Below are positions 12,390-22,791 of a stretch of 57,714 nucleotides of DNA, one piece after another (position 1 is the stretch's first letter; the number at the start of each line of letters is the position of its first letter). Under the pieces are notes generated by a model. It saw nothing but the letters and a program-made list of their open reading frames with translations. It did no database searches and was not told the DNA's origin. The position numbers and the translations under genes were made by a program. Source of the DNA: Acidaminococcus sp. CAG:917 (lineage in GTDB: Bacteria > Bacillota > Clostridia > Christensenellales > CAG-917); NCBI GenBank assembly GCA_000437555.1, contig FR901028.1, positions 58,817 through 116,530 of the forward strand. Direction: 5' to 3'.

Positions 12390-12686
12390 TTTTTACCTCT
12401 CAAAAATTTCTTTGCCGTTTGCTTGATTTGTCGGTTTTTTTTCCTCATTTGCTTTTAGCACCCACACGGTAACCCGCCTACGCTTTTACGTCCTCACGGT
12501 TTAACGCACTTGCGCTTGTCTTTCGGTTGAGTTTTTCGTTTTAGCCTAAATAAACCGCTTTAAACTTTCTTTTTACACGATAAACAACACTTTTTGCCCT
12601 AATTTTTATTTTGGGATACGGTGTTGTTTTACGTCCTTTTATCTTTTAAATTTTTCTGCGTTTATATTTTGCCGTTTAATCTGCAT

Positions 12687-12714
12687 TTCCCTCTCGGCAT
12701 TTGCCGAGAGGGAA
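12687..12714. terminator. strong hairpin just downstream of the amt::PII stop
   Basis: TTCCCTCTCGGCA-tt-TGCCGAGAGGGAA. The T-run lies on the plus side only, so terminator efficiency for the minus-strand operon is uncertain. Confidence 0.45.
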
Positions 12715-12721
12715 TTTTGTT

Positions 12722-14488
12722 TTATTTTGAATCCTGCAAAGCGTCATATCCTTCTTCGCCGGTTCTTACTTTTACTACGTTTTCAACGTCGTATACGAAA
12801 ATCTTTCCGTCGCCTATTTCGCCTGTATAGAGCGCCGCCTTTGCCGCGTCTATGACTGCCGAAACAGGAACCTTCGATACCACGATATCTACCTGCACTT
12901 TAGGCAACAGATTTACCGTAACCGGAACGCCTCTGTAATATTCCTTCTTGCCTTTCTGCTGTCCGTAACCCATGACGTGTGATACGGTCATGCCTGTGAT
13001 TCCTATTTCCGTCAACGCCGCATTGAGCTTTTGCAATCTTTCCTCTTTGCATATAATCTGCACTTTGGTAAACTTATGTTCTTTATCGTCTGCCGCCGCA
13101 GCTTTTTCAACGCCGCTCTTCTTCTCGCTCGAAACGGATATGGAAGTGTCCTCGTCTAAAACTATTCTGCCTTCTACGTCGAATTCGCCTTTTAATCCTT
13201 CCGCTCCTTCGTATGCCAAGGCATAAGAAGCTACGTTCGGTGCAAAATCGGCATATGCGTTGATAAGTCCGTGTTCGGATACGTCAAGTCCTTTTGTTTC
13301 CTCTTCGGGTTTTACTCTGAGTCCCGCCGTCTTTTTGATGATAAAGAAGAACAGTGTCATAAGTAAAGCCGTATAAGCGCAAACCGTGACTATGCCGAGA
13401 GTCTGTATTCCGAGCTGATACCAGTCGCCCGTATAAAAAAGTCCTTTAAGTCCTGCCGGAGCGTTGGGGTTTGCCAAAAGTCCTACCGCTATCGTTCCCC
13501 AAATTCCGTTTGCAAGATGCACTCCGACTGCGCCGACGGGGTCGTCAATATGCAATTTGAGGTCGATAAATTCTATCACAAGCACCACCAAGAATCCCGA
13601 AACAAGTCCTACGACGGTAGCTCCGATTGCGTCCAATGCCGCACAGCCCGCAGTGACTCCGACAAGTCCCGCAAGACAGGCGTTGATACACATCGACACG
13701 TCGGGCTTTTTGTTTTTAATCCAGGTAAAGATAAGCGTAGTGCACGTTGCCACCGCAGGGGCTATAGTTGTGTTCAAAAAGATTGTGGCAAGTTCGGATA
13801 CGCTTGTCGCCGCCGCTCCGTTGAAGCCGTACCAGCCGAACCAGAGTATGAATGCGCCGAGTGCGCCGAGCGGAATGGAATGTCCCATAATAGCGTTTAC
13901 TTTGATGACCTTACCTTTTTCGTCACGTTCGTATTTTCCGATTCTCGGTCCGACCATGATAGCTCCTATCAATGCGGTGAGTCCGCCCACCATATGTATT
14001 GCCGTAGAGCCTGCGTAATCATAGAATCCCATCTGTGCAAGCCAGCCGCCGCCCCAAATCCAGTGAGCTTCGATAGGATACACGACAAGAGAAATTATCG
14101 CCGAATAAATACAATATGCCGAAAACTTCGTTCTCTCTGCCATGGAGCCTGAAACGATTGTCGCCGCAGTTGCGCAAAACACAAGGTTGAACACAAACTT
14201 AGATGCCTCTGTCAGACCCTCCTCGGGAGAGGCGATAAACTCCGTAAACTTACCGAACAAATCCAGGTTCGGTATGCCCACAAGTCCTGCCAAAGCGTCC
14301 TCGCCCATCATAAGTCCGTAACCTAAAAGCATAAATACTACCGTGCCTATGCAAAAGTCCATAAGGTTTTTCATTATAATGTTGCCGGCGTTCTTTGCAC
14401 GGGTAAATCCCGTTTCAACCATTGCAAATCCTGCCTGCATAAAAAAGACCAATGCCGCACCGATTAAATACCAAAATTCTGTAGTCAT
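12722..14488 (-). CDS. amt: ammonium transporter (Amt) fused to a C-terminal P-II (GlnK/GlnB-like) domain
   Basis: The Amt channel spans residues 1-~415 (e.g. [13 protein letters not shown]-like [11 protein letters not shown]). A ~60-aa linker follows, then a P-II fold FTKVQIICK...[14 protein letters not shown] (T-loop)...[11 protein letters not shown] occupying roughly 12722-13063. Confidence 0.9.
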
Positions 14489-14506: not shown

Positions 14507-16597
14507 TTATACTCCGAAAAGCAGCTCTCCGTATGTCGGGAACGGCCAACATTCTTTTGAACATACCGTTTCCGCTTCGTCAGCCAAAAGACGGAGCCTG
14601 CTCATGGCCGGAAGCACCCGGTCACGTATTTTTGCCGACTCGCAAACTACGTCGCTTTCCTCTTTTGCCTTAATCACTTCGTCTTCGAGTTCGCCCGCCA
14701 TATCGAACATGGCGTCGGATATAGTTGAAAGTTTAGAAATCGTCTTTGTTTCAAACATACATTCTACCTTCTCCGAAACCGTTTTCTTTTTAATTACCGT
14801 ATCGCAAAGCTCGCCTACATATTTTTCTATTGCCGGCAAAATCTGTTTTTTTGCCATATCCGCCATCGTGTTCGCTTCGATAATCACCGTTTTGCAATAG
14901 TTTTCAAGCATTATCTCACATCTCGATTCAAGTTCTTCCTTTGTAAAAATTCCATGAGATATAAGCATATCCGCATTCTTTTTATCAAGAAGATGAGGCA
15001 TACAGTCCGCCGTCGTCTTATAGTTTGAAAGTCCTCGTCTTTCGGCTTCGGCAATCCATTCGTCGTCATAGCCGTTGCCGTTGAAAATTATTCTCTTGTG
15101 GTCCTTTATCGTCTTTTTGATGACTTCTTGAAGTTTTGCTTTAAAATCCTGAGCCCCTTCCAGCTTGTCGGCATATTGCTTTAAAGATTCCGCAACCGCC
15201 GCGTTCAGCATCATATTGGCGCACGCTATGCTGTTTGACGAGCCGAGCATCCTGAATTCAAACTTGTTTCCCGTAAAAGCAAACGGCGACGTCCTGTTGC
15301 GGTCGGTAGTGTCTTTAATAAATTTAGGCAACACGTCGACGCCGAGCTTCATTTGCTTTTTCTCTCTTGCGCTGTATGGCTTATCGTTTTCAATCGCTTC
15401 AAGCACCGCGCTGAGTTCTTCGCCCAAAAACATCGATATGACCGCGGGCGGAGCTTCGTTTGCTCCGAGACGGTGGTCGTTGCCCGCCGTCGCAACGGAC
15501 AGTCTCAATAAATCCTGATAGTCGTCAACCGCCTTAATTACGGCGCAGAGGAATATCAAAAATTGTGCGTTTTCATAAGGCGTTTCGCCGGGGGTGAGCA
15601 GATTTACTCCCGTATCCGTCGTCATTGACCAGTTGTTGTGCTTGCCGCTTCCGTTGACTCCTGCAAAAGGTTTTTCGTGCAACAGGCATACAAGGTCATG
15701 ACGCTTTGCCACCTTTTGCATTATCTCCATCGTAAGTTGGTTTTGGTCGGTTGCAATGTTCGTCGTCGAATATATCGGGGCAAGTTCGTGTTGTGCGGGC
15801 GCGACTTCGTTATGTTGAGTCTTTGCAAGAATACCGAGTTTCCAAAGTTCGTCGTTGAGGTCGTGCATAAAGTCAATAACTCTGGGCTTTATAACTCCGA
15901 AATAATGGTCGTCCATCTCCTGACCCTTAGGCGGTTTTGCGCCGAAAAGCGTTCTGCCCGTATAAATCAAATCGGGTCTTTGGTCATACAGCTTTTTGTC
16001 CACCAAAAAATATTCTTGCTCAGGTCCGACGCTCGTTTTAACGCACTTTGCCGTATCGTTTCCGAACAGTTTTAAGATTCTTAGCGCTTGCTTGTTTAAT
16101 GCCTCCATAGAACGCAGAAGCGGAGTTTTTTTGTCAAGTGCCTCGCCTCCGTATGAACAGAAAGCGGTGGGAATACATAGCGTTTTATCCTTTATAAACG
16201 CATAACTCGTCGGGTCCCACGCCGTATAACCTCTTGCCTCAAACGTTGCCCTGAGTCCTCCCGACGGGAAACTCGAGGCGTCGGGTTCGCCCTTTATAAG
16301 TTCCTTTCCCGAAAACTCCATAATCACTCTGCCGTCGGGAGCGGGACTGATAAATCCGTCGTGTTTTTCCGCCGTGATACCCGTCAAAGGTTGAAACCAG
16401 TGCGTGTAGTGCGTCGCACCCTTTTGAACCGCCCAATCTTTCATTGCCGTTGCAACGGCGTTAGCGACCGATAGGTCGAGGGTTGCGCCCTCGTCGATAG
16501 TTTTTCTCAGCGAATTGTATACGTCCGCAGAGAGCATAGAGCGCATAACTCTGTCGTCAAAAACCATACTTGAAAAATAATCCGATACCGTTTGCAT
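14507..16597 (-). CDS. glnN: glutamine synthetase, type III
   Basis: ~696 aa, the size and layout of [20 protein letters not shown] start at 16597 with an AAGGAG RBS. The track ORF start at 16729 runs through the promoter and leader. The gene lies 18 nt upstream of amt::PII. Confidence 0.9.
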
Positions 16598-16644
16598 AAA
16601 TTTTTCTCCTTTTAAATTTTTCGGCAATGCCTGTTTCACGGCAT

Positions 16645-16682
16645 AAAAAAAAGCGTCTTCGAGACTAAGTCTCAAAGACGCC
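16645..16682 (-). terminator. leader (attenuator) terminator in the 5' UTR of the GSIII-amt operon
   Basis: The RNA reads GGCGUCUUUGAGACU-u-AGUCUCGAAGACGC followed by U8. It lies between the promoter (16701-16729) and the start codon (16597). Confidence 0.75.
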
Positions 16683-16691
16683 TTTGCCTTT
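16674..16691 (-). promoter_or_regulatory. hexaloop hairpin AAAGGC[AAAGGC]GUCUUU competing with the leader terminator
   Basis: 6-bp stem including one G-U pair. The last two loop nt and the whole 3' arm are also the 5' arm of the terminator. Confidence 0.5.
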
Positions 16692-16700
16692 TTCGCTTGC

Positions 16701-16729
16701 ATTATACAAAAGGTTTTTTTTGTTGTCAA
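16701..16729 (-). promoter_or_regulatory. sigma-A type promoter of the GSIII-amt operon
   Basis: The minus strand reads TTGACA-17 nt-TATAAT, an exact consensus. Confidence 0.7.
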
Positions 16730-17000
16730 CGATTTTTTTTAAATTTTTTTTCTCTTTTTTTTAGTTTGTTACTTATCTCTTTTCTCTTTTTTCGGCGCAT
16801 ATAAATATATATATAAAAGAGAGTATCATACCCTATCCTATTATTTTTTTCGCTGAATTGTACTCATTTTAATCTGCCGCCGAAGATTGCCTACCGCTGT
16901 TAAATCAAATGCGACTATCCTTTTAAAATTCATACGGCTAAAAGGCAAAATCTTTACCTTTTTTTACCGCAATTTTAAGACAAATTTTTTTGCTCGGTTG

Positions 17001-17029
17001 TTGACAACCTTAAAATACTGTGCTATAAT
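17001..17029 (+). promoter_or_regulatory. sigma-A type promoter of the gltS/glnA/ANTAR operon
   Basis: TTGACA (17001-17006), a 17-nt spacer, then TATAAT (17024-17029). Confidence 0.7.
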
Positions 17030-17039
17030 CTCGCTGAAA

Positions 17040-17057
17040 ATGAGCAAAGACGTTCGT
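17040..17057 (+). promoter_or_regulatory. hexaloop hairpin AUGAGC[AAAGAC]GUUCGU competing with the leader terminator
   Basis: 6-bp stem with two G-U pairs. The loop plus the first 3'-arm nt equal the terminator 5' arm AAAGACG. Confidence 0.5.
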
Positions 17058-17097
17058 TTCAGAGTTTTGACGACTCTGAAAAGGGCGTCTTTTTTTA
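17046..17097 (+). terminator. leader (attenuator) terminator upstream of the split glutamate synthase genes
   Basis: Outer stem AAAGACG/CGUCUUU, inner stem UCAGAG/CUCUGA, then a U7 run. It ends 28 nt before ATG 17125. Confidence 0.7.
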
Positions 17098-17124
17098 TTT
17101 GCAAAAATTACTAAGAGGTCACAA

Positions 17125-18222
17125 ATGGATTTAAAAGAAGGTCAAATCAGAATACCGTCGGGCTGTGCCGTAAGCGCCGTCATCTCGAGAAGCGGACAAG
17201 CGATAAACGGAGAGAAAATCATAAAAAGCATGGTTCCGATGCACGAGAGGTCAAACGGTCTCGGAGGCGGATTTGCGGCATACGGAATATACCCCGATTA
17301 TGCCGACTTTTACGCATTTCATATGTTTTTCGATTCACGGATTTCAAAACAGAACTTTGAAACGTATATTAAAGAATTTTTCGAGATAGTCAAATCGGAG
17401 ATTATTCCGATAAAAAAGATAAAGTCTATCGTGGACGAACCTTTGATAATGAGATATTTTCTTTCTCCTATGAAATCGCGCCTTGCCGACGCACAGCTTG
17501 ACGAACGCGAATTTGTGGCAAGGACGGTAATGCATATAAACTCTGATATAAGCGGAGCGTGTGTAGTTTCAAGTGGTAAAAATATGGGCGTCTTTAAAGC
17601 CGTGGGATATCCTGAGGACGTAGGCGAGTTTTACCGCCTCAGTGAATACGAGGCATATATGTGGACGGCGCACGGAAGATATCCGACAAATACTCCGGGC
17701 TGGTGGGGCGGCGCTCACCCTTTCGGACTTTTGGATTATACCGTAGTCCATAACGGCGAGATATCGTCATACGATGCAAACAGACGTTTTATAGAAATGT
17801 TCGGATATAAATGCACTCTGCAAACGGATACGGAAGTCATAACTTATATCGCCGATTATCTTTTACGCAGACAAAAGCTGACCCTCGCCGAAACGGCATC
17901 GGTTATTGCGGCACCTTTCTGGAGCACGATTGAAAAATGCTCAAAGGAGCAAAAAGAAAAACTGACCTATTTGAGATACGTATTTTCCTCTTTGCTGATA
18001 ACGGGTCCTTTTTCCATAATACTCGGCTTTGACGGCGGACTTATGGCATTGAACGACCGATTAAAACTGCGTTCCATGGTGACGGGCGAAAAAGACGATT
18101 TGTTTTTTATAGCAAGTGAAGAAGCCGCCATAAGAGCTATGGAACCGAAAGCGGAAAACATCTATTCCCCCGACGGCGGCGAGCCGATAATAGTAAAAGT
18201 AGAAAAGGAGGCACAAAAGTGA
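17125..18222 (+). CDS. glutamate synthase, class-II glutamine amidotransferase subunit (archaeal-type split GltS)
   Basis: Ntn-GATase layout with a Cys near the N-terminus (IPSGCAVSAV) and ...HGRYPTNTPGWWGGAHPF...VVHNGEISS. Confidence 0.8.
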   Translation: MDLKEGQIRIPSGCAVSAVISRSGQAINGEKIIKSMVPMHERSNGLGGGFAAYGIYPDYADFYAFHMFFDSRISKQNFETYIKEFFEIVKSEIIPIKKIKSIVDEPLIMRYFLSPMKSRLADAQLDEREFVARTVMHINSDISGACVVSSGKNMGVFKAVGYPEDVGEFYRLSEYEAYMWTAHGRYPTNTPGWWGGAHPFGLLDYTVVHNGEISSYDANRRFIEMFGYKCTLQTDTEVITYIADYLLRRQKLTLAETASVIAAPFWSTIEKCSKEQKEKLTYLRYVFSSLLITGPFSIILGFDGGLMALNDRLKLRSMVTGEKDDLFFIASEEAAIRAMEPKAENIYSPDGGEPIIVKVEKEAQK

Positions 18223-19724
18223 AAGCAGATTATCTTTACCCCGAATATGAAATCATAAGAAACGACGCACTTTGCACAAAGTGCCGTCTTTGCGAAAAAG
18301 AATGTTCAAACGGCGTGCATTTCTTTATTGCGGAAAAAGGAATACTTGCGTCGGACTCGTCAAAATGCGTAAACTGTATGCGTTGCGTTGCTACCTGTCC
18401 CGTCCATGCAATTAAAATCGTAAAGAGCGGAGCCGATTTTACTTACAACGCGAACTGGACGTCGGACGTGATAAGAGAAATTTTCAAACAGTCGGCAACG
18501 GGCGGTGTTTTGCTCTCTTCTATGGGAAATCCCAAACCTTTGCCCGTCTATTGGGATAAAATTTTACTTAATGCCTCGCAGGTGACAAACCCCTCTATCG
18601 ACCCGCTCAGAGAGCCTATGGAAACAAAGCTATTTTTGGGAAAAAAGCCGTCGAACATTGTCCGAGACGAAAACGGCAAAATGGTTTTAAATACTCCTCC
18701 GTCGCTTGAGCTTTCCCTGCCCGTAATGTTTTCGGCAATGAGCTACGGTTCGATAAGCTACAACGCTCACGAATGCCTTGCCCGCGCGGCAACGAAGCTC
18801 GGCACTTTTTACAACACGGGAGAAGGCGGGCTTCACAAAAACTTTTATAAATACGGCAACAGCACGATTGTTCAGGTGGCGTCGGGAAGATTCGGCGTGC
18901 ATAAAGATTACCTCGAAGCGGGTGCGGCAGTGGAAATCAAAATGGGACAGGGCGCAAAGCCGGGTATAGGCGGTCACCTGCCCGGCTCGAAAATCGTGGA
19001 CGACGTCTCAAAGACGAGAATGATTCCGACAGGCTCGGACGCCATATCCCCCGCCCCTCACCACGACATTTATTCTATTGAGGATTTACGTCAGCTTGTT
19101 TTTTCATTAAAAGAGGCAACGGAATATAAAAAGCCGATTTTCGTCAAAGTTGCCGCAGTGCACAATATTGCCGCTATAGCAAGCGGAATCGCAAGAAGCG
19201 GAGCAGACGCCATAGTTATAGACGGTTTCAGAGGCGGCACGGGAGCTGCCCCTACAAGAATAAGAGATAACGTGGGAATCCCCGTTGAGCTTGCTCTTGC
19301 CGCAGTCGACAGCAGACTAAGACAGGAAGGAATAAGAAACGACGTTTCGCTCATCGTCGGCGGAAGCATAAGAAGTTCTGCCGACGTAATAAAAGCGATT
19401 GCCTTGGGTGCGGACGCATGCTATATCGCAACCGCCGCCCTCATATCGCTCGGCTGTCATCTTTGCCGAAACTGTCAGAGCGGAAAATGCAATTGGGGAA
19501 TCGCTACCCAACGCCCCGAACTTGTAGCAAGACTCAATCCCGATGAAGGCAGCGAAAGACTTATTTGTTTGCTTACCGCTTGGAAAAGAGAAATCAAAGA
19601 GTTTATGGGGGCAATGGGTATAAACTCTATCGAAGCGCTTAAAGGCAACCGCCTTATGCTCAGAGGTATCGGGCTTAGCGAAACGGAACTCAACGTGCTT
19701 GGCATAAAACACGCAGGCGAATAA
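18219..19724 (+). CDS. glutamate synthase FMN/Fe-S (synthase) subunit with N-terminal 2x[4Fe-4S] ferredoxin domain
   Basis: CTKCRLCEKEC and CVNCMRCVATCP motifs. The GltS FMN-domain blocks follow: EIKMGQGAKPGIGGHLPG, ISPAPHHDIYSIEDL and DGFRGGTGAAP. It overlaps the upstream gene by 4 nt. Confidence 0.85.
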   Translation: MKADYLYPEYEIIRNDALCTKCRLCEKECSNGVHFFIAEKGILASDSSKCVNCMRCVATCPVHAIKIVKSGADFTYNANWTSDVIREIFKQSATGGVLLSSMGNPKPLPVYWDKILLNASQVTNPSIDPLREPMETKLFLGKKPSNIVRDENGKMVLNTPPSLELSLPVMFSAMSYGSISYNAHECLARAATKLGTFYNTGEGGLHKNFYKYGNSTIVQVASGRFGVHKDYLEAGAAVEIKMGQGAKPGIGGHLPGSKIVDDVSKTRMIPTGSDAISPAPHHDIYSIEDLRQLVFSLKEATEYKKPIFVKVAAVHNIAAIASGIARSGADAIVIDGFRGGTGAAPTRIRDNVGIPVELALAAVDSRLRQEGIRNDVSLIVGGSIRSSADVIKAIALGADACYIATAALISLGCHLCRNCQSGKCNWGIATQRPELVARLNPDEGSERLICLLTAWKREIKEFMGAMGINSIEALKGNRLMLRGIGLSETELNVLGIKHAGE

Positions 19725-19741
19725 ACAAAAAGGAGACGACT

Positions 19742-20464
19742 ATGATAACAATAGACGCAACAATGCAAGACAACGCAGCTCTTTGCAATATGATAAAACA
19801 GTCTGATGACGACGTTAAAATCTCGCAATGTCTCGGCGAGAGATTTTTGGGAGCCGGTCTTAAAGATAAGTATATCGAAATCGACGGCACGCCGGGAAAC
19901 GCTCTCGGAGCATATCTCGACGGTGCAAGCATAACCGTCAACGGCAATGCTCAGGACGCCGTCGGCGATACTATGAACGCAGGCACCATTGTAGTTTACG
20001 GCAACGTAGGCGATGCTGTCGGATATGCAATGCGCGGAGGTAAAATTTATATCAAAGGAAACGCAGGCTATCGGGCGGGCATTCATATAAAGGCTTATAA
20101 GGAAAAATTTCCCGTCATTGTGATAGGCGGCAGATGCGGCAGTTTTTTGGGCGAATACCAGGCAGGCGGATTGATTATTGTTTTGGGTCTTAATAAATCG
20201 TCTAAAAACGTGACGGGCAATTTCCCCTGCACGGGTATGCACGGTGGAAAAGTTCTTATAAGGGGGGATATAAGCGGTATAACTTTTCCCGAACAGGTAA
20301 ACGTCGAAAAAGCGACGGAATCGGATATGTCTGAAGCCATGCCATATATTAAAGAGTTCTGCTCGCTTTTCGGTTACGACGTTTCGGAAGTGATAAACTG
20401 TGCTTTCAGCGCCGTCAAGCCCGACAGCTCAAACCCGTATAAGCAAATGTATGTGGAAAATTAA
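19742..20464 (+). CDS. glutamate synthase GXGXG-repeat (beta-helix) subunit
   Basis: Repeats GNALGAYLDGASITVNGNAQDAVGDTMNAGTIVVYGNVGDAVGYAMRGGKIYIKGNAGYRAG, typical of GltB C-terminal / FwdC-like domains. Confidence 0.8.
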   Translation: MITIDATMQDNAALCNMIKQSDDDVKISQCLGERFLGAGLKDKYIEIDGTPGNALGAYLDGASITVNGNAQDAVGDTMNAGTIVVYGNVGDAVGYAMRGGKIYIKGNAGYRAGIHIKAYKEKFPVIVIGGRCGSFLGEYQAGGLIIVLGLNKSSKNVTGNFPCTGMHGGKVLIRGDISGITFPEQVNVEKATESDMSEAMPYIKEFCSLFGYDVSEVINCAFSAVKPDSSNPYKQMYVEN

Positions 20465-20487
20465 TCCTGATAATTTTTCATTTTACT

Positions 20488-20576
20488 GCGCCGCCGAGTG
20501 TATCCGACAATAAAATTTTTTTAGCTGTATTTGCAAAAATTTTATTTTGTATTGACACTGCGGCGGCGTTTAATTT
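20488..20576 (+). terminator. long composite hairpin after the gltS genes (possible terminator/processing site)
   Basis: GC-rich outer stem GCGCCGCCGAGTG / CACTGCGGCGGCG with a 1-nt bulge. It encloses an AT-rich inner hairpin ACAATAAAATTTTT / AAAAATTTTATTTTGT and is followed by TTTAATTT. Confidence 0.5.
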
Positions 20577-20581
20577 ATTAT
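20552..20581 (+). promoter_or_regulatory. possible internal promoter for the GS-I-like gene
   Basis: TTGACA (20552-20557), an 18-nt spacer, then TATTAT (20576-20581). The -35 sits inside the 3' arm of the composite hairpin. Confidence 0.35.
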
Positions 20582-20695
20582 TATATTGTTATATAATTTT
20601 GTTTATATTATAATTATATTTAAAATAAATCTAAATCAAATAAAAGCTAAATTAAAAAAGTAAATCCGACATACACAAAATAAACAGGTGAAAAT

Positions 20696-21907
20696 ATGAG
20701 TTATTCAGAAAAAGAAGTTATGCAATATTGTGCCGAAGAGGACGTAAAATTCATTCGTCTTGCCTTTTGCGACGTTTTCGGAGTTCAAAAAAACATCTCC
20801 GTTATGCCGAGTCAACTGCCCAAAGTTTTTAAGCACGGCATTGCCATAGACGCTTCCGCTATTGACGGTTTCGGTCAGGAAGGACGTTCGGATTTGTTTT
20901 TATATCCCGACCCTTCCACGCTCACTGTTTTGCCGTGGCGTCCCGAACACGGCAGAGTGGTAAGAATGTTTTGCAGAATATGCAATCCCGATAAAACCAC
21001 TTTCATAAACGATACCAGAAGCATTTTGGTTAAAGCCGTCGCCGACGCTAAAGAAGCGGGCTATAATTTCAATTTCGGCTCCGAGCTTGAGTTTTATCTC
21101 TTTAAACTCGACGAAAAGGGAAACCGAACGTATATTCCGCACGACGACGCAGGTTATATGGATATCGCACCCGACGACAGAGGCGAAAACGTGCGCCGTG
21201 AAATTTGCCTCACCTTAGAGCAAATGGAAATCGTTCCCGAAGGCTCGCACCACGAAGAAGGCCCGGGACAAAACGAAATAGATTTTGAATATTCCGACCC
21301 GCTGACTGCCGCCGACAGAGCGATAACTTTCAAATCGGTTGTCAAGACGATAGCGGCAAGAAACGGTCTTTATGCCGATTTTTCTCCCAAACCCCTTACC
21401 GACCAACCCGGTTCGGGATTTCACGTGAATATCTCGGTTGGCGACGGAAAAAACGGCGAACTTATGCCCTACCTTATCTCGGGAATCCTTGACAAAATTC
21501 GCGAGATATCTCTTTTTTTAAATCCCTCCGAAAATTCTTACGAACGTTTGGGCAGTTTTAAAGCTCCCAAATATGTTTCGTGGTCTATTGAAAACCGCTC
21601 GCAACTTATAAGAATTCCCGCCGCAGTCGAAAACTTTAAGAGACTTGAGCTGCGCTCGCCCGACCCGACTTCGAATCCTTATATAGGCTTTGCGTTGCTC
21701 ATTTACGCTTGCATAGAAGGACTTGACGGACATCTTCCGCTTCCTGAGCCTGCGGACATAAATTTTTATACTGCAAGCGAGGAAATCTTAAGCCGCTTCA
21801 AATCCCTGCCCCTCAGCCTTGAAGAGGCAAAGAAAACGGCAGCGGCAAGCGATTTTGTCAACAAACATTTACCGTCCTCTTTGATTGACGCCTACCTTAA
21901 TAAATAA
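20696..21907 (+). CDS. glnA: type I glutamine synthetase-like protein (short, atypical)
   Basis: GS-I blocks GSELEFYLF, SHHEEGPGQNEIDF, GSGFHVN, NSYERL, NRSQLIRIP and LELRSPD. At 403 aa it is ~40 aa shorter than typical GS-I. The flap motif reads SFKAP instead of GYEAP. Confidence 0.85.
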   Translation: MSYSEKEVMQYCAEEDVKFIRLAFCDVFGVQKNISVMPSQLPKVFKHGIAIDASAIDGFGQEGRSDLFLYPDPSTLTVLPWRPEHGRVVRMFCRICNPDKTTFINDTRSILVKAVADAKEAGYNFNFGSELEFYLFKLDEKGNRTYIPHDDAGYMDIAPDDRGENVRREICLTLEQMEIVPEGSHHEEGPGQNEIDFEYSDPLTAADRAITFKSVVKTIAARNGLYADFSPKPLTDQPGSGFHVNISVGDGKNGELMPYLISGILDKIREISLFLNPSENSYERLGSFKAPKYVSWSIENRSQLIRIPAAVENFKRLELRSPDPTSNPYIGFALLIYACIEGLDGHLPLPEPADINFYTASEEILSRFKSLPLSLEEAKKTAAASDFVNKHLPSSLIDAYLNK

Positions 21908-21919
21908 ACGGAGATAAAT

Positions 21920-22504
21920 ATGTCGCTTCAGGAAAGGATTTACAGCGTTTTAGTCGTATCGACATCGGACAAGTTTCTATCGTCCGTATCTCCCCTTTTG
22001 CCCGAAGCGTCATTTTCCCCGATAGACAGAGCAGATAGCGTATCCAAAGCTAAAAGACGGCTGATTGACAAAAGTTATGATATCTTACTCATAAACTCTC
22101 CGCTGTCCGATGAAGACGGCTGTAAACTCGCAATAGATTTCTGCGGCTTATCAAACGGCGTCGCCCTCTTGTTTGTGGCAAGAGAACTTTATCACGAGTT
22201 CTATGATAAAACCGTCGACTTCGGCGTTATGACCGTTCCCACGCCCACAAGCGTTCAGGTCGTATCTCAATCGCTCGATTATACAAGAGCGGTAATAGAA
22301 CGCCTTAAAAGGTTTAACCGCACCGTGACCACCGTTCAGGAAAAAATGAAAGAGATACGGATAGTCAACCGTGCTAAATGGGTTCTCATCAATGAGCTTA
22401 AAATGACGGAAGAGGACGCGCACCGCTATATTGAAAAACAGGCTATGGACAGATGCATCTCCAAAGCGACGGTAGCGCAGAATATTATAAACACATATAA
22501 ATAA
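21920..22504 (+). CDS. ANTAR-domain RNA-binding antiterminator with pseudo-receiver N-terminal domain
   Basis: C-terminus NRAKWVLINELKMTEEDAHRYIEKQAMDRCISKATVAQNII matches the ANTAR pattern. The N-terminal receiver-like fold has Asn59 (YDILLIN) where the phospho-Asp is expected. It lies 12 nt after the GS-I-like gene. Confidence 0.85.
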   Translation: MSLQERIYSVLVVSTSDKFLSSVSPLLPEASFSPIDRADSVSKAKRRLIDKSYDILLINSPLSDEDGCKLAIDFCGLSNGVALLFVARELYHEFYDKTVDFGVMTVPTPTSVQVVSQSLDYTRAVIERLKRFNRTVTTVQEKMKEIRIVNRAKWVLINELKMTEEDAHRYIEKQAMDRCISKATVAQNIINTYK

Positions 22505-22698: not shown

Positions 22699-22727
22699 AA
22701 AAAAGCCCGAACGCTGTCGGGCTTTTC
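22699..22727. terminator. bidirectional intrinsic terminator
   Basis: AAAAAGCCCGA-acgctg-TCGGGCTTTT between the convergent ANTAR and DtxR-like genes. Confidence 0.75.
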
Positions 22728-22730
22728 ATT

Positions 22731-22791
22731 ATTTAGGGTTTTATCATTTCGGGTTTTATTTATTTAGGGTTTTATTATTTCGTTTTTATTT
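22731..22791. repeat. two tandem ~31-nt repeats
   Basis: ATTTAGGGTTTTATCATTTCGGGTTTTATTT is followed by ATTTAGGGTTTTATTATTTCGTTTTTATTT. The second copy runs into the 3' end of the DtxR-like CDS. Confidence 0.6.

Follow-up and report, generated by a model that had tools for sequence, protein, structure and literature searches.

The experimentally studied substrates of ANTAR antiterminator proteins, the eut, nasF and ami leaders, are all described as two hexaloop RNA hairpins, P1 and P2, with A at loop position 1 (A1) and G at loop position 4 (G4). This report concerns two leader elements of Acidaminococcus sp. CAG:917 in which the conserved hairpin is, from its sequence, the predicted counterpart of P2, the antitermination hairpin that overlaps the terminator, while P1 is absent. 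Both elements lie between divergent nitrogen operons on a 57,714-nucleotide (nt) stretch of contig FR901028.1 (positions 58,817 to 116,530; assembly GCA_000437555.1), which is referred to throughout as the window. The minus-strand operon encodes a type III glutamine synthetase (GS; GSIII) and a fusion of an ammonium transporter with a PII domain (Amt::PII). The plus-strand genes encode a split glutamate synthase (gltS), a GS-like protein and an ANTAR protein. Both leaders are probably ANTAR-dependent attenuators that work through a single hexaloop hairpin.

The EutV/EutW system acts on the eut leaders of Enterococcus faecalis and, like the window, combines an ANTAR protein with A1/G4 hexaloops (AAAGAC and AAAGGC); in both systems, the 3′ side of the hairpin is the 5′ arm of the terminator (PMC3369931, PMC8934654). 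EutV substrates contain P1 and P2 separated by a constrained linker, whereas the window leaders contain a P2-like hairpin only, predicted to sit at the very start of the transcript. As a phosphorylated response regulator, EutV controls ethanolamine use, while the window ANTAR protein has Asn at the acceptor site and a proposed role in ammonium assimilation. The minimal ANTAR binding unit is one hexaloop, in which G4 is stacked on Tyr164 of EutV, and Walshe et al. (2022) asked for searches for single-hexaloop targets (PMC8934654).

NasR of Klebsiella oxytoca recognizes the nasF leader, whose P2 hairpin (GGAU-AAAGGC-GUCC) has the same loop as the window, and it also serves antitermination in nitrogen metabolism. 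Unlike the window protein, NasR is a one-component regulator with a NIT sensor domain and a two-hairpin substrate. AmiR of Pseudomonas aeruginosa has His at the EutV G4-stacking position, as does the window ANTAR protein, and its receiver domain is not known to be phosphorylated. In AmiC-AmiR and in NasS-NasT of Paracoccus denitrificans (PMC3795266), the ANTAR protein is under the control of a partner sensor instead of phosphorylation. AmiC and NasS are periplasmic-binding-protein-like sensors of amides and nitrate, whereas the sensor proposed for the window is a GS paralogue. In Bacillus, GS-I-alpha is a nitrogen sensor that controls the regulators TnrA and GlnR by direct contact. TnrA and GlnR bind DNA; the window regulator is proposed to bind RNA, and its GS paralogue is shortened (403 residues) and dedicated to the regulator gene.

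NitR of Clostridium saccharobutylicum has been proposed, on genetic grounds, as the ANTAR antiterminator of GS and glutamate synthase (GOGAT) genes (PMC6316151). The ANTAR gene of C. saccharobutylicum and C. acetobutylicum adjoins a GS-I gene, and GS/GOGAT antitermination is proposed under nitrogen limitation, as in the window, where the ANTAR gene is likewise paired with a GS-I-type gene and the targets are gltS and GSIII. The NitR system differs in that it includes an antisense RNA, and the regulated GS of the window is type III. The Clo1313_2030-2038 cluster of C. thermocellum contains ANTAR, GS-I, split GOGAT and GSIII genes together, which is the same gene set as in the window. Furthermore, Table S2 of Ramesh et al. 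(2012; PMC3369931) contains ANTAR RNA hits from several Clostridia that are located ahead of GS, GOGAT, Amt and AsnB genes. Control of clostridial nitrogen genes by ANTAR proteins has therefore already been predicted, and for NitR it has been proposed on genetic grounds. In the literature searched, which was mostly open and left most subscription papers outside, including the primary NitR paper, no description was found of a conserved single-hairpin 5′-terminal architecture or of a pseudo-receiver/GS-like pairing as its input.

The two leaders and their hairpins

The divergent gene sets are separated by a 527-nt intergenic region (16598-17124) with the following features:

16701..16729, minus strand: GSIII-Amt::PII promoter, exact TTGACA-17-TATAAT, with 9 nt between the end of the -10 hexamer and the hairpin
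16674..16691, minus strand: hairpin AAAGGC[AAAGGC]GUCUUU, stem class B (5′ arm 16691-16686, hexaloop 16685-16680, 3′ arm 16679-16674)
16645..16685, minus strand: leader terminator from folding, GCGUCUUUGAGAC-UUA-GUCUCGAAGACGC followed by U8 (16652-16645)
17001..17029, plus strand: gltS-operon promoter, exact TTGACA-17-TATAAT with TG ahead of the -10 hexamer, whose end is 10 nt from the hairpin
17040..17057, plus strand: hairpin AUGAGC[AAAGAC]GUUCGU, stem class A (5′ arm 17040-17045, hexaloop 17046-17051, 3′ arm 17052-17057)
17046..17096, plus strand: leader terminator from folding, AAAGACGUUC.UUUCAGAGUU...GACUCUGAAA.GGGCGUCUUU followed by U7 (17090-17096)

An initial annotation of this DNA had placed exact consensus promoters, strong hairpins with U7-8 runs before each start codon, and two mutually exclusive six-pair AAAGRC hairpins in this region, and all of these were recovered at the same coordinates. 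The two promoters point away from each other and are the only exact TTGACA-17-TATAAT matches in 57.7 kb, where shuffled sequences lead to an expectation of 0.01. The minus-strand terminator stem extends from 16685 to 16649 including an A/U extension (-23.9 kcal/mol, z = -7.0), and the plus-strand stem occupies 17046-17089 (-24.6 kcal/mol, z = -5.9). Both hairpins fold with six pairs and a hexaloop, at -3.5 kcal/mol on the minus strand and -3.9 kcal/mol on the plus strand. In each leader, the hairpin loop and 3′ arm sit within the 5′ arm of the terminator, so the hairpin and the terminator are mutually exclusive.

The window loops are identical to published ANTAR loops, namely AAAGGC of nasF P2 and eutA P2 and AAAGAC of eutG P2, which bears out the earlier view that AAAGRC follows the ANTAR rule of A1 and G4. 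The window thus has an A1/G4 hexaloop, a hairpin that shares its arm with a terminator, and an ANTAR gene in the same genome, as expected of ANTAR-target RNAs, while its leaders lack the tandem arrangement of P1 and P2. A covariance model (R1), derived from 61 occurrences of the hairpin in relatives, scores the two window sites at 31.8 bits (minus) and 28.0 bits (plus), with the next best match in the window at 14.3 bits. Other exact GCAAAGACGT matches (6537, 8280 and 29501) were considered and rejected, as they have a coding-like context, no stem or terminator, and R1 scores below 15 bits. Comparison of the leaders with Rfam gave no match at the gathering threshold and only chance-level matches at E up to 10.

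R2, a dual-hairpin covariance model, was built from 26 top-ranked hits in Fig. S2 of Ramesh et al. It does not match the window leaders (9.3 and 8.6 bits; E = 1.6 and 2.5), and even these scores require “P1” to coincide with the promoter or “P2” to fall within the terminator. The initial annotation had found one hexaloop hairpin per leader, a count that also holds across the family described below.

Conservation and putative target genes in related Clostridia

ANTAR homologues were collected, and an alignment of 18 of them was used to fetch 80 loci from species-representative genomes. These loci belong to Christensenellaceae, Oscillospiraceae, Lachnospiraceae and unclassified Clostridia, and they encode ANTAR proteins 48-57% identical to that of the window. 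At least 582 stretches of species-representative genomes are confirmed to contain ANTAR homologues of this family. The best species-representative match to the window ANTAR protein is 57% identical among the matches listed, while ANTAR and GSIII proteins with 91-100% identity are common in metagenome assemblies. The window organism seems to have no close representative in the species-representative collection; its nearest named GSIII relatives are assigned to Eubacteriales, Clostridiales and Candidatus Ornithoclostridium.

The 10-mer GCAAAGRCGT, which is common to both window leaders, is present in 43 of the 80 loci. Two divergent copies separated by about 150-300 nt are typical, and each directly follows a promoter and directly precedes a terminator. 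R1 identifies about 100 sites in 45 of the 80 loci. Of the 45 loci that extend 6.5 kb or more upstream of the ANTAR gene, 40 contain a site; some of the other five have variants with AC...GU closing pairs instead of GC...GU. The initial annotation had proposed an ANTAR-controlled attenuation regulon for ammonium assimilation, a proposal that loss of the hairpin and loop upstream of orthologous operons would have undermined. Both are kept upstream of orthologous gltS and GSIII operons in these relatives, and the proposal is supported.

Across 98 sites, the loops are AAAGGC (65), AAAGGU (10), AAGGGC (8), AAAGAC (6), AAUGGC (5) and AACGGC (4). Loop positions A1, A2 and G4 are invariant, whereas positions 3, 5 and 6 vary and position 3 may be any of the four bases; this variation fits the published ANTAR consensus AAHGRH/AAHGDV. 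The stems form two classes. Class A (AUGAGC/GUUCAU) is found in gltS-type and GS-like/ANTAR leaders, and class B (AAAGGC/GUCUUU) in GSIII and other leaders. The two classes differ by compensatory changes at three of the six pairs, and further paired variants include ACGGGC/GUUCGU and GAAGGC/GUCUUC. The comparison of orthologous leaders that the initial annotation had recommended yields covarying stems around a loop with fixed A1, A2 and G4.

In 87 of the 98 sites, the terminator uses the 3′ arm of the hairpin, as judged by a strict automated test of the best terminator, and most of the remaining sites either have a visibly weaker U-tract or mirror a palindromic terminator. This test supersedes an earlier one based on the first U-run, which undercounted (73/93). 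The hairpins of the relatives have a mean of -3.9 kcal/mol and the terminators a median of -24.4 kcal/mol.

A recognizable sigma-70-type promoter is present at 71 of the 98 sites, and in 60 of these 71 the end of the -10 box is separated from the hairpin by 7-11 nt. At this distance, the hairpin should start within the first few nucleotides of the RNA, which leaves no space for P1. A second A..G hexaloop hairpin is not enriched between -60 and +60 of the 98 sites (10 seen upstream versus about 12 expected). Hexaloop hairpins peak only at +62 to +90, where they belong to a second full attenuator that has a separate terminator and is found in a dozen or more relatives. These serial pairs, each with two full attenuators of one hairpin and one terminator placed 62-90 nt apart before GSIII, occur in many relatives (L028, L036, L038, L047, L053, L076 and L077), and the window has one attenuator at this position. 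In the Ramesh alignment, the low-ranked Desulfitobacterium hits 057 and 095 are upstream of GS and a glutamate-synthase homologue; they contain a good GAGC-AAAGGC-GCUC hairpin after a degenerate “P1” and have the same look as the window family (PMC3369931).

Closer relatives of the window were also observed. L081 and L082 (positions 1965-2505 versus window 16594-17130) have 96% identical GSIII and a 99% identical intergenic region, and the comparison is therefore uninformative on selection. Their gltS hairpin stem has two substitutions (A-U to G-U and U-G to U-A), both of which keep pairing. In L083 and L084 (1-4597), from a relative with 82% identical GSIII, the GXGXG, GS-like, ANTAR, GSIII and AsnB genes are all co-directional, and a class B attenuator with its own promoter is located between the ANTAR gene and GSIII.

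In the ANTAR-anchored loci, class A sites precede the gltS operon, which runs on into the GS-like and ANTAR genes and often includes an extra ferredoxin and pyridine-nucleotide oxidoreductase gene. Alternatively, class A sites are directly before the GS-like/ANTAR pair. Class B sites precede the genes for GSIII, Amt-PII, AsnB, glutamate dehydrogenase (GDH), GuaA (GMP synthase), PyrG (CTP synthase), PurA, PurC and IlvE (branched-chain aminotransferase). As a guard against sampling bias, the class B 18-mer alone was also scanned against metagenome contigs. In this motif-first scan, 60 of the 98 matches with a downstream open reading frame (ORF) precede GSIII, and the other downstream genes encode GDH, PurC, PyrG, GlmS, GatC, AsnB and a sodium/glutamate symporter; a few matches from soil or marine samples lack a terminator and resemble chance hits. 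Of the 47 motif-first stretches that reach 9 kb or more, 13 also encode an ANTAR homologue, which, as a rough estimate, is far above the expectation from 1-3 ANTAR genes per genome. The sites would form a coherent regulon of ammonium assimilation and of enzymes that spend the nitrogen of glutamine or aspartate.

The ANTAR protein, its proposed GS-like partner and the locus

The genes on both sides of the intergenic region, with Pfam assignments where these define the product, are arranged as follows:

12722-14488, minus strand: Amt::PII fusion, second gene of the minus operon (Ammonium_transp and P-II)
14507-16597, minus strand: GSIII, first gene of the minus operon (GSIII_N, Gln-synt_C, Gln-synt_C-ter)
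17125-20464, plus strand: split archaeal-type glutamate synthase, gltS (Pfam), in the three parts below
17125-18222, plus strand: GATase_2 part of gltS (Pfam)
18219-19724, plus strand: Glu_synthase part of gltS with a ferredoxin domain (Fer4; Pfam)
19742-20464, plus strand: GXGXG part of gltS (Pfam)
20552-20581, plus strand: possible internal promoter, TTGACA-18-TATTAT, a consensus match only (11/12 matches)
20696-21907, plus strand: GS-I-alpha-like protein of 403 residues (Gln-synt_N, Gln-synt_C)
21920-22504, plus strand: ANTAR protein of 194 residues with a pseudo-receiver N-terminal domain (ANTAR)

On the strength of profile and alignment comparisons, the product of 21920-22504 is a true ANTAR protein. 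It scores 57.1 bits against Pfam ANTAR (cut-off 27.3), and among solved structures the family profile finds Rv1626, AmiR, EutV and NasR (1S8N, 1QO0, 6WSH and 4AKK). Alignment with EutV pairs K143 with R147, K147 with R151, K149 with K153, E160 with E164, Y164 with H168, and R142 with I146. The window equivalents of EutV residues that contact RNA are thus R147, R151, K153, E164 and H168 (contacts according to PMC8934654). H168 is invariant and matches the EutV Tyr that stacks on the flipped-out G4.

The N-terminal domain departs from that of two-component response regulators, which have a phospho-acceptor Asp and an N-terminal acidic pair, both of which the window protein lacks. The acceptor Asp is replaced by Asn59, which is invariant in 18 homologues; the DLVIMD motif of Rv1626 aligns with DILLIN of the window protein, and the acidic pair is replaced by Ser/Ala/Ser. 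This receiver-like domain is therefore a pseudo-receiver, and the protein is no ordinary response regulator.

The GS-like gene directly precedes the ANTAR gene in 66 of 67 loci. Its 403-residue product matches Firmicute GS-I structures with E ~1e-97 and apparently keeps the catalytic motifs, but an internal segment and about 35-40 C-terminal residues are missing. By analogy with ANTAR proteins that are held by partner sensors, it is possible that the GS-like protein is the nitrogen-status sensor partner of the ANTAR protein and would retain or free it as nitrogen status changes.

The initial annotation had treated gltS, the GS-like gene and the ANTAR gene as one operon. Its gltS promoter is exact, but the match at 20552-20581 indicates that the GS-like/ANTAR pair may have its own promoter besides read-through from gltS, and the pair may be transcribed also on its own. 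The match lies in an AT-rich 230-nt spacer on the plus strand (20465-20695) before the GS-like gene, in which no attenuator was found. Two GC-rich segments of this spacer, at about 20489-20497 and 20561-20568, have the potential for long-range pairing. The ANTAR gene is followed by a terminator-like hairpin (22701-22726) and by short direct repeats of TTTAGGGTTTTAT(C/T)ATTTCG (22728-22790, plus strand).

On the minus strand, the GSIII frame is open across the leader, and the mechanical ORF has 740 residues (14507-16729). GSIII has 731 residues in several public gene calls, as compared with 696, so the leader and terminator have been annotated as coding. The gap between GSIII and Amt::PII is 18 nt, and Amt::PII is a single 588-residue protein with an ammonium transporter and a PII (GlnK-like) domain, a fusion also present in many relatives. 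Between the Amt::PII stop and the AsnB start is a 330-nt untranslated stretch (12390-12721, minus strand; fold z = -3.2 versus shuffles), in which neither an Rfam match nor, by R1 scan, an ANTAR-type hairpin or attenuator was found. A hairpin at 12687-12714 has a T-run on the plus strand alone. In relatives, AsnB is directly after GSIII or has its own class B attenuator.

Proposed mechanism and alternative explanations

We infer ANTAR binding and regulated read-through in response to nitrogen, along the following lines. Both operons would start at strong, probably constitutive sigma-70-type promoters, and control would act after initiation, at the terminator of each leader. The first 18-20 nt of the transcript would fold into the weak 6-bp AAAGRC hairpin. 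When unbound, this hairpin would be displaced by the downstream terminator arm, because about -4 kcal/mol is set against about -24 kcal/mol, and transcription would end ahead of the start codon. When nitrogen is limiting, an ANTAR dimer would bind the hexaloop via A1, A2 and the flipped-out G4. The locked hairpin would then withhold the 5′ arm of the terminator and allow read-through into GSIII-Amt::PII and gltS. Read-through would probably reach the GS-like and ANTAR genes as well, which would constitute positive autoregulation.

Because Asn replaces Asp, the ANTAR protein should not be phosphorylatable at the usual site. Its activity would most likely be set by protein-protein contact with the GS-like protein encoded just upstream. 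The GS-like protein would sense glutamine, glutamate or ATP status, in a manner comparable to AmiC-AmiR, NasS-NasT and the control of TnrA/GlnR by feedback-inhibited GS.

Several points weigh against this mechanism. The case for the GS-like sensor consists entirely of gene adjacency, the Asp-to-Asn replacement and analogy. EutV needs both stem-loops for full binding and bound a single one much less well (PMC3369931). Walshe et al. expected single hexaloops only where the transcribing polymerase imposes no time constraint (PMC8934654), whereas the single hexaloops here are in transcription attenuators. Together with the dual-hairpin form of every experimentally studied substrate, the EutV requirement would favor classical dual-hairpin substrates whose P1 escaped notice, as it might if transcription in fact started further upstream. 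This is very unlikely in view of the 7-11 nt between the -10 box and the hairpin at 60 of 71 promoter-bearing sites, the lack of hexaloop enrichment from -60 to +60, and the R2 scores of only 9.3 and 8.6 bits. The 80 loci were selected via the ANTAR protein, so the co-occurrence of hairpin and ANTAR gene in them is partly built in, a bias that the motif-first scan corrects only partly. This bias, and the missing defining feature of ANTAR targets, leave room for a different trans-acting factor that reads the hairpin, such as the GS-like protein, PII, another RNA-binding protein or a small RNA, while the ANTAR protein acts elsewhere. Such a factor is improbable, although less so than a missed P1, because the loop exactly matches known ANTAR loops, the positions that ANTAR proteins read are conserved, the ANTAR gene is in or beside the regulated operons at nearly every locus and is enriched in motif-first loci, and the equivalents of the EutV RNA-contact residues are kept.

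The covariation also has limits as evidence for ANTAR-controlled single-hairpin attenuation, since its alignment was pre-filtered for at least five of six pairs and the changes are mostly between two sequence classes, which implies few independent events. The arms nonetheless change in concert so that pairing is retained, in part through G-U pairs, which would have no meaning in DNA, and the asymmetric loop is fixed. These features, together with the co-orientation of the sites with the downstream gene, are difficult to reconcile with the idea that the GCAAAGGCGT element, shortly after the transcription start, is bound by a repressor as a DNA operator and that the RNA hairpin is incidental. 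The element is partly palindromic and located at about +5 to +25 of strong promoters, as would suit an operator, but about one quarter of the sites are promoter-less and lie inside operons with their own terminator, as in the GDH-GSIII gap of L057, L018, L005 and L043. The chance that the element is an operator is accordingly very slim, lower than that of a missed P1. The loop AAAG can pair with the terminator U-tract, so part of its conservation could reflect terminator design. In the extreme case, the leaders would contain unregulated or leaky terminators and the AAAGRC-GU core would be a by-product of the A-tract/GC-stem/U-tract design; indeed, in the minimum free energy fold of each leader, the terminator stem reaches into those bases. 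This explanation is the least probable of the four. It does not account for a complementary 5′ arm upstream of the terminator, a loop of exactly six bases, invariant A1, A2 and G4 next to a free position 3, the restriction to nitrogen genes, or the presence of just two such sites in 57.7 kb.

ANTAR-dependent attenuation through one hairpin would have several consequences. About 100 natural attenuators without P1 bear directly on the “successive binding” model, according to which the protein is recruited by P1 while P2 has yet to be transcribed. They also meet the request of Walshe et al. (2022) that single-hexaloop targets be sought bioinformatically. With the 18-nt hairpin model R1, members of the regulon are found that score no better than chance with dual-hairpin models.

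To our knowledge, strict anaerobes of the gut and rumen have no NtrBC and often no TnrA/GlnR, and nitrogen sensing in these organisms is poorly worked out. A wider proposal is put forward tentatively and is considerably less certain than attenuation itself: one 5′-terminal hexaloop may suffice for co-transcriptional antitermination, with P1 dispensable, and in many Clostridia of the gut and rumen (Christensenellales, Oscillospirales and Lachnospirales) the master switch of nitrogen assimilation may be an ANTAR protein that cannot be phosphorylated and that responds to a shortened, dedicated GS-I paralogue sensing nitrogen status, with control over GSIII, GOGAT, GDH, Amt-PII, AsnB and several enzymes that consume glutamine or aspartate. 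The circuit outlined here would combine sensing by the GS-like protein, a pseudo-receiver ANTAR protein and one-hairpin attenuators ahead of GSIII, GOGAT, GDH, Amt and amidotransferase genes into a compact and widespread means of nitrogen control in these bacteria.

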